The notes below the pieces were generated by a model. It saw only the letters and a list, made by a program, of their open reading frames with translations, was not told where the DNA came from and made no database searches. A DNA stretch of 64,000 nucleotides, from assembly GCA_964016885.1 (NCBI GenBank), contig OZ024749.1, positions 53,072,001-53,136,000 on the forward strand. The letters run 5' to 3'. Position 1 is the stretch's first letter. Every line of letters starts with the position of its first letter. The translations under genes and the position numbers were made by a program. The DNA comes from Eledone cirrhosa. Taxonomy: Eukaryota. Positions 3,045-64,000 of the stretch are shown here, one piece after another.

Positions 3045-3462
3045 ATGGGATTGCCAGTATCAGTAGAGCATCAGACACCATTCTTTGCAGCATAGAGTTA
3101 TGGCCCTTTACGTTCTGAGTTAAAATCCCGCTGAGGTTAACTTTGCCTTTCATCTTTATGGGGTCAATAAAATAAATTACCAGTAATACACTGGGGTAAT
3201 TGCTGGCCCTGTGCCAAAAGTAGAAACAATTACTATGGCAGTGGATTAGCAGAGGCAGTAGAGCATCAGACAAAATGTTTAGCAGTATTTGTTCTGATGA
3301 TTTACTTCCTGTGTTCAAATCCTACTGAGGTCAACTTTGTCTTTCATCTTTCTGAGGTTGATAAAATAAAATACCAGTAAAATACTGGGGGGGTTGATTT
3401 CATCAACTTTCCCGTCCTCCAAAACAAAACTGCCGCCCTTGTTCCTAAATTAGAAACGATTA
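3045..3462 (+). mobile_element. Two tandem tRNA-derived SINEs (abundant family with core gcctttcatcct.acggggtcgataaaataaagtaccag)
   Basis: A-box-like tggcagtatcggtag, B-box gagttcaaatcc, conserved core and tail gtgccaaaagtagaaacaatt; many copies across the window. Confidence 0.85.
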
Positions 3463-3564
3463 TTATTCATGCCCCAGCATGGCCTCAGCCAGTTGGCTGG
3501 GGACACACAAAAGAGTAAAGAGTATATATTAACATTTTAATCATGTATTTCTTTTTTTCTTTAG

Positions 3565-3935
3565 ATCATATGCAAAACTCCCAGAGCAACACACTATCAT
3601 GGCAGTCATCATCATTGCAACCTCCACTGGCTCCTCCTCCACCACAACCACCATCATCATCTCTACCTTCTCTCGAACCTCCTACACCGATGTTCGGTCT
3701 ATCAGCAGGTGGTCTCAATACATCAATGGGGAGTGGTGTAGCTAGTAGTGCAGGACTTTCAGAATCTATCCGCAATCATGCGTCACGAGAGAATACCTCA
3801 ATGGGGAGTGGTGTAGCCAGTAGCGCAGGACTTTCCGAATCTATTCGCAACCATGCATCACGAGATAACGAAGATGTTGAAATCATGTCCAGCGATTCCT
3901 CAAGTAGCAGTTCGAGTGATGAAGAAAACCCATGA
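3565..3935 (+). CDS. MED4: MED4 terminal coding exon
   Basis: Acceptor ttctttag|3565, phase-compatible with the 2229 donor. Ends ...DNEDVEIMSSDSSSSSSSDEENP-TGA, matching the MED4 C-terminal motif EDVEIMSTDSSSSSS. Confidence 0.9.
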
Positions 3936-4044
3936 AGTTTTGTGTGTCAGTCCAACGTTTCCTCATGTAGCAGGTGAAGTGATGAGGAAAACTCCTGATG
4001 TCTTCATTGTAGTTTTGTCAGTCCTTATTTGTTGTAATAATAAT

Positions 4045-4050
4045 AATAAA
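4045..4050 (+). terminator. Candidate polyadenylation signal of MED4
   Basis: AATAAA about 110 nt after the stop codon, followed by T-rich sequence. Confidence 0.55.
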
Positions 4051-4155
4051 ATATTTCTCTTAACATTGTTCCAATGTCTTCACACTCTGTTGATTTATCA
4101 AATAAGATCTTCCACATTTCCATTTTTACTATAAGTAAACTTTCTAAAAGCTGCT

Positions 4156-4187
<32 letters not shown>

Positions 4188-4297
4188 TAGGATTTTTATG
4201 TCGATTTCTTCATGCTGACATGGATTGGATGAGACTTTTTGAGGTAATGTTTCATAGCTGGATGTCTTTCCAGATGCCAACCCTTTTTCGTTCCTGC

Positions 4298-4700
4298 AGG
4301 GACACAGTGTACCTATTTAAACTGGGTACACACAGGGATACAGTGTACCTATTGTAAACCAGATACACACAGGGATACAGTGTACCTATTGTAAACCAGA
4401 TACCCACAGGGATATAGTGTACCTGTTGTAAACCAGATACCCACAGGGATACAGTGTACCTAGTGTAAACCGGATACCCACAGGGATACAGTGTACCTAG
4501 TGTAAACCGGATACCCACAGGGATACAGTGTACCTAGTGTAAACGAGATATACACAGGGATACAGTGTATCTATTGTAAACCAGATACCCACAGGGATAT
4601 AGTGTACCTGTTGTAAACCAGATACCCACAGGGATATAGTGTACCTACTCTAAACCAGATACTCACAGGGGTACAGTGAACCTACTGTAAACTGGGTATG
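4298..4700. repeat. 37-bp minisatellite (about 11 units)
   Basis: cacagggatacagtgtacctattgtaaaccagatac recurs at 4331, 4368, 4405 and onward. Confidence 0.92.
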
Positions 4701-5324: not shown

Positions 5325-6090
5325 CTAATATTTGTTTCTACTTTTGGCATCAATTATCTCAGTGTATTACTGGTACTTTATTTTATCGACTAACTAATAT
5401 TGTTTTTTATTTTGTATCGTCTAATTTGCTTTTTAATACAGCCGCTTCTTCTGTCCACAAAGTTAATATTACCCAGCAAACTAACCCGTTGTCAACTTCT
5501 TTGCTGGTTGACTTTGCCCGTAAAATATCTGTCCACAAAACCAATAATTGTTTAGGCATAAGGCCAGTAATTTGAAGGGGAGGGGAAAATCGATTAAATC
5601 TACTCCAGTGAATTACTGGTACTTTATTTTATCGACCCCGTAAGGATGAAAGGCAAAGCTAACCTCAGCGAGATTTGAAATCAGAACGTAAAGGGCCACA
5701 ATTCCGTGCCTCAAAGAATGACGTCCGACGCTCTACCGATTCTGCCAGCTAATAATTGTTTCTACTTTTGGCACAAGGCCAGCAATTATCCCAGTGTATT
5801 ACTGGTACTTTATTTTATCGACCCCGTAAGGATAAAAGGCAAAGTTAACCTCGGCGGGATTTGATCTCAGATCATAAAGGGCCGTAACTCTTTGCCTGCT
5901 AATAATTATTTATACTTTTGGCACAAGGCCAGCAATTAATCCAGTACATTACTGGTACTTTATTTTATCGACTCCTTAAGGATGAAAGGCAAAGTTAACC
6001 TCGGCGGGATTTGAACTCATACCATAAAGGGGCGTAACTCTATGCATCAAAGCATGGCGTCCGACCCTCTACCGATACTGCCAATCCAAT
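5325..6090 (-). mobile_element. Cluster of about 4-5 tandem or truncated SINE copies
   Basis: Repeated ctggtactttattttatcgaccccgtaaggatgaaaggcaaagttaacctcggcgggatttgaac, the reverse complement of the SINE core. Confidence 0.9.
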
Positions 6091-36809: not shown

Positions 36810-38060
36810 CTTTTAACTAAAAAAAGAAAAATTCTTTTCCGGTTCTGTTGACACAAATTATTTCGATGGTGTTTGTAATTAATTCAAGATAAACAATAAT
36901 TATGGTCTCTCTCTCTCTCTCTCTCTCTCGTCCACCGCCACATCTAACATTTTAATTGAAGTAGCAATAGTTATTATTACAGTTTAGCCACAGCGCGGCT
37001 GTATTGGTCAATGTGACAGTGTAGCCAAGACTACGTTCTCAAATCTCTTTTTTAAAGTAGTGGTGTGTTCGTTGGCTCATTTTTTAAAAAAAATGATTTA
37101 CTGTCCCTAACGTAATAAGGCTTAAGAGGCGGGAAAACCCAGCAAAGCGATTGGATGAAATAAAAAGGGGGAGGGGCAGAAATTGATCTAGGTATTTCTA
37201 AAATTCGTATGGTAGGGTCCGGTAACTCGCAAGAGTGTCATAGGGGCTCTGTATTAATATACGGCGTTTCTGAGGGCATTTATAAACCTGGCGGAACCCA
37301 TTTCATCTCCAGGCCTGAATACAGTAGATTTCTTCCAGAGAAGGATAGAGAGAGAGTGAGATATAGAAGAATTGCCCCTAGTACTTGACTGGTACTTTAT
37401 CTGGCGATATTGACTAGGAAGGTTCTCTAGATCTGGTGAGCTTGGCGAGGAGGGTCCCTCAGTTAATAAAATCACAACAAAGAACCTGTTAACTTAGCTG
37501 GTTGTTTAGATTTGTTCAGTTGCTGTGAATATACTTACTTATTGTTTAGTGGGTGGTGGGTTGGCAGGGTGTATTGCACTAAATTTCTCGCAGTTTACTA
37601 TTCAGTGGGTGCGGGTTGGCAGGATATATTGCACTAATATCTCGTACTTTCCTCATTGTTCTGATTATCGATTATCGTCTATTGATCTGGCGAAGGGAAG
37701 AGATCAATAACACGTATTACAGCAACTGCAGTAACCCTCTGGCAATGGATTGGCAGAATTGGTAGAGCGTCACATCAGTTGCCTTTACCATTTCGGCATT
37801 TAGTTTTGGTTCTTAACATTCTGAGTTCAAATCCCGCCGAGATCAACTTTAACTTTCCTCCTCTCGGAGTTAATAAAATAAAGTACCTGTCAAGTACTGG
37901 GGTCGATTTAATAAACTTTGCCATTCACCTTGATTTATTGACCTTATGCCTAAATTACAAATCCATATTCACCTGTGCATGGAAACCTCTAAAGGGGTCA
38001 AGGGTTTTTGTACAAATACAATTAATGGTTGAAAATGTTTTTTACGTCATATTGAACATT

Positions 38061-38530
38061 GAAATACCCCCTCTAAATAATATTGGCTGTTGAAATATCC
38101 CCTCTAAATACTATTGGCTGTTGAAATACCCCCTCTAAATAATATTGGCTGTTGAAATATCCCCTCTAAATACTATTGGCTGTTGAAATACCCCCTCTAA
38201 ATAATATTGGCTGTTGAAATATCCCCTCTAAATACTATTGGCTGTTGAAATACCCCCCTCTAAATACTATTGGCTGTTGAAATACCCCCTCTAAATACTA
38301 TTGGCTGTTGAAATACCCCCCTCTAAATACTATTGGCTGTTGAAATACCCCCCTCTAAATACTATTGGCTGTTGAAATACCCCCCTCTAAATACTATTGG
38401 CTGTTGAAATATCCCCTCTAAATACTATTGGCTGTTGAAATACCCCCCTCTAAATACTATTGGCTGTTGAAATACCCCCCTCTAAATACTATTGGCTGTT
38501 GAAATACCCCCTCTAAATACTATTGGCTGC
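38061..38530. repeat. 31-bp minisatellite (about 15 units) in intron 1
   Basis: gaaataccccctctaaatactattggctgtt repeated, with degenerate copies continuing to ~38690. Confidence 0.95.
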
Positions 38531-38923: not shown

Positions 38924-39445
38924 TTAACCCTTTTGATACCAATCCGTCAGAAACCATCCCTGGTTCTATGATACTAAACTGTTTTATGTAAGAACCTTTG
39001 AACCAAACACCAACTTAATAATGGAAAAGTTATATTACTAAATTCTTCCAAATTCTTGACTATTTTCAAAATTAATTGAAAATAATAGTGTCTTTCATTA
39101 GAAATATGGTAATGAAAGGGTTAAGGACATAGACAGTGTCTTTCATTAGAATGATGGTAATGAAAGGGTTAATGACATACAGTGTCTTTCATTAGAATGA
39201 TGGTAATGAAAGGGTTAATGACATAGACAGTGTCTTTCATTAGAATGATGGTAATGAAAGGGTTAATGACATAGACAGTGTCTTTCATTAGAAATATGGT
39301 AATGAAAGGGTTAAGGACATAGACAGTGTCTTTCATTAGAATGATGGTAATGAAAGGGTTAAGGACATAGACAGTGTCTTTCATTAGAATGATGGTAATG
39401 AAAGGGTTAATGACATAGACAGTGTCTTTCATTAGAAATATGGCA
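38924..39445. mobile_element. piggyBac-type MITE (TTAA-CCCTTT...AAAGGG-TTAA, 38924-39124) followed by a 48-bp tandem array of its right end
   Basis: Terminal TTAACCCTTT and AAAGGGTTAA; the unit agtgtctttcattagaatgatggtaatgaaagggttaaggacatagac repeats about 7.5 times over 39087-39445. Confidence 0.75.
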
Positions 39446-43342: not shown

Positions 43343-44500
43343 ATATATACTATTGTATTGTCACAGTAAAGGCTTTACCTCACATAATATCTCCCATAAC
43401 ATTTACATTACTCTATATATACTATTGTATTTTCACAGTAAAGGCTTTACCTCGCATAATATCCCACATAACATTTACATTACTCTATATATACTATTGT
43501 ATTGTCACAGTAAAGGCTTTACCTCACATAATATCTCACATAACATTTACATTACTCTATATATACTATTGTATTGTCACAGTAAAGGCTTTACCTCACA
43601 TAATATCCCACATAACATTTACATTACTCTATATATACTATTGTATTGTCACAGTAAAGGCTTTACCTCACATAATATCTCACATAACATTTACATTACT
43701 CTATATATACTATTGTATTTTCACAGTAAAGGCTTTACCTCACATAATATCTCACATAACATTTACATTACTCTATATATACTATTGTATTTTCACAGTA
43801 AAGGCTTTACCTCACATAATATCTCGCATAACATTTACATTACTCTATATATACTATTGTATTTTCACAGTAAAGGCTTTACCTCACATAATATCTCACA
43901 TAACATTTACATTACTCTATATATACTATTATATTTTCACAGTAAAGGCTTTACCTCACATAATATCTCGCATAACATTTACATTACTCTATATATACTA
44001 TTGTATTTTCACAGTAAAGGCTTTACCTCACATAATATCTCACATAACATTTACATTACTCTATATATACTATTGTATTTTCACAAAGGCTTTACCTCAC
44101 ATAATATCTCACATAACATTTACATTACTCTATATATACTATTGTATTTTCACAAAGGCTTTATCTCGCATAACATTTACATTACTCTATATATACTATT
44201 GTATTTTCACAAAGGCTTTATCTCACATAACATTTACATTACTCTATATATACTATTGTATTTTCACAAAGGCTTTATCTCGCATAACATTTACATTACT
44301 CTATATATACTATTGTATTTTCACAAAGGCTTTATCTCGCATATTCATCTCGCATAACATTTACATTACTCTATATATACTATTGTATTTTCACAGTAAA
44401 GGCTTTATCTCGCATATTCATCTCGCATAACATTTACATTACTCTATATATACTATTGTATTTTTGTGGTAAAGGCTTTATCTCGCATAATCTCACATAA
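43343..44500. repeat. 72-bp minisatellite (about 16 units, shorter toward the 3' end) in intron 3
   Basis: cacagtaaaggctttacctcacataatatctcacataacatttacattactctatatatactattgtatttt repeated. Confidence 0.95.
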
Positions 44501-63339: not shown

Positions 63340-64000
63340 GGGTAAGGTCGGCTTTTATCAGCACCTTTTTATGCAGCTGTCATCCTTCATACGCATCATA
63401 TGTCCATACCAACACAACCGCCTTTCCTGCAAACAGCATTTGATTCCTCTTATGCTCAGTCTCTCTCTCAATTCATTTATGCTTTGCCGTTCGCGTATAT
63501 TACTATTACACATCCATCGGAGCATGCAGGCTTCGTTTCTCTCTAATCTCCGTAAGTCTTCCACCTTCAGCACCCAGGTCTCACTACCATGTAACATTGC
63601 TGTTTGGATACACGCATCATACAGTCTGCCTTTCATTTTGAGGGAAAAGCCTTTTGCAGCTAGCAGTGGCAGTAGTTCCCTGAACTTCTTCCATCCCGTT
63701 TTTACCCTAGTTATTGTACTTTCTGAACACCCACCTCCGCTGCTAATTCGGTCACCTAGGTAGCAGAAGCTGTCTACTGTTTCTACAGAGCCCTCCCAGA
63801 GATTGGTGGTACTTGTTTCCTGTGGCTGTTTGCTGCTTGCTGTCCCAGCACAGCTGCTACATGTGAAGCCTACATTCTTAATTAAGCTTCCTGAGATCCC
63901 ACTACATCTCTTGTGTACCCATTGTTTGCATTTGGGGCAGAGAATGGAGTTCCTACCTACACCTTTCCTACATACTGAGCAAGGCCATTTCTCTGAGGGG
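63340..64000 (-). mobile_element. RTE-clade LINE ORF fragment (RT C-terminal region with a Cys/His-rich insert)
   Basis: Minus strand reads WPCSVCRKGVGRNSILCPKCKQWVHKRCSG...VDSFCYLGDRISSGGGCSES...KGRLYDACIQTAMLHGSETW...RRLCWYGHMMRM. Confidence 0.9.

Follow-up and report, generated by a model that had tools for sequence, protein, structure and literature searches.

The window, by which we mean the whole 64,000-nucleotide stretch of Eledone cirrhosa DNA analysed here, opens within the gene for the Mediator subunit MED4. Segment 1206-1337 matches the Pfam Med4 family (PF10018) at 9.9e-9, and this match from a single exon scores 35.6 bits, above the curated cut-off of 26.9. Five exons with AG/GT ends, all on the forward strand, join into a single open frame of 268 residues with one stop. 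These are 139-260, the first within the window, the start-codon exon lying upstream of it; 692-807, encoding a coiled coil; 1215-1359, which holds the Pfam match; 2176-2229, encoding the DPRRPYPTD region; and 3565-3935, the last coding exon, which encodes a disordered tail and for which the Pfam search returned sub-threshold noise only. The last exon ends in a conserved acidic and Ser-rich core (the N-E-D-V-E-I-M-S-S-D-S run) with the stop at 3867-3935 (+), present in a single copy.

The encoded protein differs from MED4 of O. bimaculoides/sinensis at 6 of 242 aligned residues (236 identical), and the aligned proteins of Argonauta and of cuttlefish differ from it at 17 and 39-40 positions, respectively, which marks the host as an octopod close to these Octopus species without being one of them. 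Judged against Argonauta and cuttlefish, four of the six differences from Octopus appear derived here, and a Pro insertion is found in addition; these changes fall in exon 692-807 and in 3565-3716 of the last exon. O. vulgaris and O. bimaculoides MED4 are identical across 263 columns. These alignments suggest that MED4 may have evolved faster on the present lineage than in Octopus.

Tandem repeats are abundant in the window (152 TRF rows), so that local slippage is common. Non-coding minisatellites lie at 4297-4692 (37-nt period), 5743-6045 (150 nt), 38059-38529 (31 nt), 39087-39437 (48 nt) and 43343-44500 (72 nt). A 33-nt element of very high copy number lies at 3469-3501, in the intron preceding the last exon; its summed contig depth is about 90,000 in two of the sequencing runs described below (X1 and X2), and it probably represents the core of an interspersed repeat. 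At the far end of the window, 63361-63999 (-) is an open frame of 213 amino acids with a Cys/His pattern that we take to resemble the PHD-type finger of RTE-class LINE proteins. The last MED4 exon has, where it is rich in Ser and Pro, a 45-nt-spaced and 76% identical pair, 3607-3643 and 3652-3688 (+), that may be an older in-frame duplication common to other coleoids or a chance product of low complexity.

Immediately before the acidic core, the last exon holds a 75-nt in-frame tandem duplication, recovered as the same pair at 89% identity by both Tandem Repeats Finder and a repeat finder. Copy 1 (3717-3791, +) and copy 2 (3792-3866, +) each comprise 25 codons, encoding the same 24 residues followed by E in copy 1 and D in copy 2. 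Copy 2 is identical at 25 of 25 residues to the single copy of O. vulgaris and of O. bimaculoides/sinensis, and copy 1 is the segment by which the protein exceeds all single-copy orthologues in length. The two copies differ at unit positions 6, 27, 33, 45, 54, 60, 66 and 75, in all eight cases at codon position 3; seven of the differences are synonymous and one is GAG/GAT (E/D). A sequence-only reading of this DNA had reported the same coordinates, translation and differences, all of which we reproduce, and had set the chance of eight third-position changes at (1/3)^8, which is arithmetically right (1.5e-4) and for which better nulls are computed below. We note that the register of the repeat is loose, with starts from 3716 to 3719 each yielding eight differences. 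Were the unit to begin a base earlier, E would be encoded by a hybrid junction codon, combining letters 1-2 of the Asp codon with letter 3 of the upstream Leu codon, and no amino-acid substitution would be needed.

A structured RNA element is rejected, as the repeat folds no better than its shuffles (z=+1.57; 189 of 200 shuffles fold as well). Selection for evenly spaced, repeat-breaking silent changes is likewise rejected, the spacing being random (the longest perfect run, at 20 nt, equals the null median; P=0.58). A-to-I editing as the source of the differences is rejected too, both versions being genomic and the transcript contig described next being unchanged within the exon. An in-exon splice removing one copy (GT at 3709, AG at 3788-3791) would lack a pyrimidine tract, and no corresponding joint is present in the contigs, although contigs drop rare forms.

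Of seven sequencing runs considered, four contain the stretch (X1, X2, X4 and X5), all from one study and none recorded as RNA, and we mapped these onto 3450-4140, the repeat being covered by contigs rather than by raw reads. X1 and X2, which are one sample and possibly the source of the window assembly, each provide one 709-nt DNA contig across 3471-4140 with 0 differing letters. X4, which carries another sample code, provides an 898-nt contig over 3560-3953 with both copies and no joint. Since the loose end of this contig is the upstream exon 2176-2229, joined to the last exon, we take it to be a spliced transcript, and it matches the window through both copies; its sole mismatch, at 3563, lies outside the exon, where the aligner ran five letters into the intron. 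X5 consists of raw RAD-seq reads with depth in 3 of 29 bins, none of them at the repeat. The contigs of three of the four runs thus contain no joint, gap or differing letter within the repeat, which is genomic and also part of a spliced transcript. The single unbranched contig per sample further suggests that no single-copy allele occurs in these samples, bearing in mind that contigs drop rare variants and that both samples may derive from one animal.

The sequence-only reading had offered a non-biological origin, by merged haplotypes or an edited sequence, as one of its two explanations. In favour of such an artefact are the shared origin of the runs in one study, the possibility that X1 and X2 are the assembly source and the use of contigs instead of raw reads; its chance is negligible all the same. 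The copies share no exact match longer than 20 nt, which is less than the word length of 31 letters, and read-derived contigs therefore cannot invent the junction; single contigs cross it without a difference, the spliced contig of the second sample has both copies, and the 11% difference between the copies far exceeds allelic levels. This part of the earlier reading is largely refuted.

Among relatives, a single copy only is found in the MED4 proteins of O. vulgaris, O. bimaculoides/sinensis, Argonauta hians, Acanthosepion pharaonis and four further cuttlefish-like sequences. In the alignments of cephalopod MED4, a check of the kind that the earlier reading had proposed, the peptide is conserved among the single-copy orthologues. 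Our wider comparison set held 125 proteins, the best 120 of 679 matches plus 5 cluster members; one of these 125, from Physella, contains an internal tail repeat, which is an unrelated Q/H repeat. A second carrier was found neither among longer proteins (3 of 2257 candidates, all single-copy) nor among proteins of near length (0 of 129); a representative-protein search gave one match, single-copy, exact look-ups returned 0 of 3, and 0 of 594 pattern matches in metagenome contigs were confirmed as orthologous DNA. Nor did we find a report of this repeat in the cephalopod, octopus or Mediator literature searched, which left most subscription journals outside. Because Argonauta, the outgroup, is single-copy, the simplest history would be one gain on the present lineage after its split from Octopus sensu stricto.

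Analysis of the two copies at the codon level points to constraint on the protein. The unit has about 18.7 synonymous and 56.3 non-synonymous sites, which puts pS at 0.375 and pN at 0.018, corresponding to a JC dS of 0.52 (95% CI 0.19-1.34) and a dN of 0.018 between the copies. This dN/dS comparison, also proposed in the earlier reading, gives a shared ML omega of 0.035, with omega above about 0.2 disfavoured. The LRT yields p=7e-5 against both copies being free and p=0.002 against one copy being free, values that are post hoc, since the changes number only eight and this very pattern was the reason for picking the case out of a large scan. Under a null that includes transition and CpG bias, at least seven synonymous changes out of eight would arise with probability 4e-4 to 9e-4 from two free copies and 0.008-0.016 from one free and one fixed copy, rising to 0.028 in the latter case if the per-copy distance is 0.10. 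A free extra copy would be expected to carry 5-12 replacements, and at most one is seen. Three of the seven synonymous changes lie at CpG, while four CpGs in Arg codons are intact. Gene conversion, or concerted evolution, is rejected as the cause of protein identity because it would homogenise silent sites too, and the copies differ at 7 of their roughly 18.7 synonymous sites. In conservation, the repeat does not stand out demonstrably from its flank (1 of 50 residues changed in the repeat vs 4 of 50 in the residues upstream, p=0.36).

A second tandem duplication, absent from the earlier reading, lies directly downstream at 3887-4024 with a period of 63 nt. Its unit 1 (3887-3949, +) starts at a GTCC microhomology and comprises the last 15 codons, the stop and the first bases of the 3' UTR; unit 2 (3950-4024, +) is a 3'-UTR copy with an 8-nt insertion and an internal stop. 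The repeat finder aligns 3887-3941 with 3950-4004 at 80% identity over 55 nt, and a local alignment of the distal part scores 56, against a maximum of 33 in 5000 shuffles. GTCC occurs at 3887, 3950 and 4021, which fits the expectation of microhomology-mediated slippage. Since the final codons and the stop are already supplied by unit 1, the UTR unit was non-coding from birth, and it constitutes a built-in neutral control for the coding repeat. Read in frame, its nine changes fall 2, 3 and 4 times on codon positions 1, 2 and 3, and three would be synonymous and six non-synonymous, one of them creating a stop. The contrast with the 75-nt repeat is seen in the non-synonymous changes (6 in 36.7 sites vs 1 in 56.3, Fisher p=0.015), in the ratio of position 3 to positions 1 and 2 (4:5 vs 8:0, p=0.020) and in the ratio of synonymous to non-synonymous changes (p=0.036). 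The neutral distance of the UTR copy is 0.18, compared with 0.26 per copy of the 75-nt repeat; because these distances are close, the two duplications may be of similar age, or may even be a single event. Over such distances, 9-12 replacements would be expected in a free extra copy.

We therefore find, from a dN/dS of about 0.035, the rejection of one free copy, the free decay of the UTR duplicate and the conserved peptide of the orthologues, that both copies are very probably constrained. The other explanation offered by the sequence-only reading, strong purifying selection on a duplicated interaction or phosphorylation motif, is thus supported as regards selection.

Combined alignment and structure prediction indicate what the duplicated block may carry. 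Codons 9-21 of the unit, a block of 13 residues ending in R-N-H in copy 1 (3741-3779, +) and occupying the invariant columns A85-H97 of the cephalopod alignment in copy 2 (3816-3854, +), are invariant in nine of nine rows spanning octopods and cuttlefish, several of these rows being near-identical; conservation of the unit's first third is confined to octopods. At the end of the block, K/R is found in 39 and H in 37 of 41 metazoan MED4 proteins, and the H of this [K/R]-x-H also aligns with the human MED4 chain (7emf_D). A loose [K/R]-x(1,2)-H stands at most 14 residues upstream of the terminal motif in 105 of the 122 proteins that have this motif (drawn from the best 120 of 679 matches plus 5). 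A second loose instance, some 35-40 residues upstream of the terminal one, is present in 35 of the 122, mostly insect MED4; given so degenerate a pattern and proteins related to one another, this may mean nothing. The acidic/Ser core that follows the repeat is near-invariant in the 41 metazoan proteins and is not duplicated in frame.

Each repeat copy contains eight Ser/Thr residues. AlphaFold assigns pLDDT below 50 to residues 169-251 of Octopus MED4 and likewise to most of the two-copy repeat, and in the two-copy exon neither copy receives a helix or any confidently predicted structure. The block is thus a conserved island within a disordered region, as is characteristic of a short linear motif or MoRF, and is a putative interaction or phosphorylation motif. 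The available passages of PMC4770211 describe the Med4 C-terminal disordered region as conserved in animals, plants and fungi, with predicted modification hotspots and MoRFs, as binding Med9 in Arabidopsis and as needed for yeast viability. Those of PMC7921410 place MED4 and MED9 in a helical bundle of the Middle module and are silent on the tail. No binding partner for the repeat segment itself was found in the literature searched. A SUMO-interacting reading of the V-E-I-M core found no support in the literature searched and was rejected, the core in any case lying outside the repeat.

The age of the duplication can be approximated from its silent divergence. At the rate of 2.4e-9 per site per year given in the available part of PMC7656900, a dS of 0.52 corresponds to about 108 Myr (39-279), and the same part of that source places Hapalochlaena and O. 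bimaculoides about 59 Myr apart and Callistoctopus about 183 Myr. The chance of accumulating at least seven silent changes is 0.14 for 59 Myr, 0.046 for 44 Myr and 0.008 for 30 Myr. The timing is tight, the age estimate being high and yet the protein only six residues from that of Octopus, and it fits only if the repeat was gained soon after an old split from Octopus, if CpG sites made the local rate higher, or if the duplication was lost in Octopus.

A different origin of the silent divergence would relax this timing. The units could have diverged as separate functional single copies, in a paralogue, a retrocopy or an introgressed allele, and have been joined later by unequal crossover or conversion; this would yield a high dS with zero dN and would require no selection on the extra copy. 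The joining of two alleles gives P(at least 7 of 19) of 5e-6 even at 4% divergence, and the accessible passages of PMC13174406 put octopus diversity at 0.07-0.26%. A paralogous donor is possible, but no second MED4-like contig was found at 88% or more on 3690-4025 in X1 or X2, with a filter that drops some records, and the neighbouring microhomology-flanked duplication points to local slippage. A late joining is accordingly very improbable. It is improbable as well, if less so, that the extra copy is neutral and its synonymous-only pattern the outcome of chance and ascertainment, aided by CpG change and a younger true age. The bias-aware probabilities for one free copy are only modestly small, nearly half of the synonymous changes (3/7) lie at CpG, and a large scan will occasionally meet such p-values; the LRT, the unchanged Arg-codon CpGs and the adjacent UTR duplicate, in which sequence is seen to decay freely, nonetheless argue against it.

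The main rival, since no partner for the segment was found in the literature searched, is that the duplication is real and the constraint generic only, acting on the composition, charge and Ser content of the tail in a dosage-sensitive complex, with the extra copy a tolerated filler and not a second binding site. The whole of MED4 is slow (6 of 242 changes vs Octopus), the repeat is conserved no more than its flank, the tail copies have no predicted structure, and molluscs vary in tail length, Q/H expansions giving 303-305 amino acids. Generic constraint would, however, permit swaps among S, T, A and G, none of which occurs in 48 codons, and it sits poorly with a 13-mer that is invariant between octopods and cuttlefish. 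We consider it rather unlikely, with a better claim than neutrality.

In sum, the results favour, as the probable explanation, an old, lineage-specific intragenic in-frame duplication in the disordered tail, with both copies under purifying selection and, probably, a doubled short motif. Under this explanation, a germ-line tandem duplication of 75 nt would have arisen in the last MED4 exon of one octopod lineage, probably by slipped-strand or microhomology-mediated replication and roughly when the neighbouring 63-nt duplication arose. With dS near 0.5 it would be old, on the order of tens of millions of years, and purifying selection would since have held the protein of both copies. The MED4 tail may be viewed as a disordered tether that ends in the conserved acidic/Ser motif, with the duplicated block as its conserved lead-in, the coleoid 13-mer ending in [K/R]-x-H. 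Two copies would then provide two docking or phospho-sites as well as a 25-residue longer reach for the terminal motif; if a mutant copy were not rescued by the other, neither would be free to drift. This doubled-binding-motif mechanism is put forward tentatively, at somewhat less than even chances.

A bolder version holds that the [K/R]-x-H block is an unrecognised docking motif whose bivalent form was fixed in the octopod lineage, both sites being needed from the start and no relaxed phase intervening. We regard it as speculative and on balance unlikely; if true, it would make this a natural gain-of-valency allele in core Mediator, marking the borders of the motif and carrying its own neutral clock in the 3' UTR. 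A duplicate whose protein is unchanged over about 0.5 silent substitutions per site suggests that the 25-mer matters and defines the borders of the peptide. Both duplications are good clade markers, and the known role of Mediator is unchanged by the finding.

With respect to other metazoan MED4 (PF10018; 7emf_D; XP_014782321.1; CAI9737051.1), the present protein shares the helical N-terminal part, the disordered tail and the terminal acidic/Ser motif, but these relatives are without a 25-residue duplication before the terminal motif among the 125 proteins compared (the best 120 of 679 matches plus 5). MED4 of Physella acuta shows an independent expansion of tail repeats in another mollusc, at about residues 203-245; in contrast to the present case, its low-complexity Q/H units are diverged, lie further upstream and do not cover the [K/R]-x-H. 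Polyubiquitin units, too, combine identical protein with diverged silent sites, their homogeneity being maintained by purifying selection and not by gene conversion. The MED4 repeat resembles them in this combination and differs in being a two-copy disordered peptide within one protein, restricted to a lineage, and not a processed folded unit. For intragenic repeats in general, the accessible part of Persi, Wolf and Koonin 2016 (PMC5120217) reports that copies diverge with dN/dS below 1, usually under strongly relaxed selection and about tenfold faster than orthologous repeats. The MED4 copies resemble the repeats described there in tandem duplication followed by divergence at dN/dS below 1, whereas here omega is about 0.035, copy 2 is the same as the orthologue, and the copies, only two in number, show no sign of a relaxed phase. 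Where selection on new repeat copies is usually relaxed, this locus is a clean exception, and it has a neutral control at a distance of 100 nt. Intragenic duplication with purifying selection is a known process, and the MED4 case stands at its conserved extreme.
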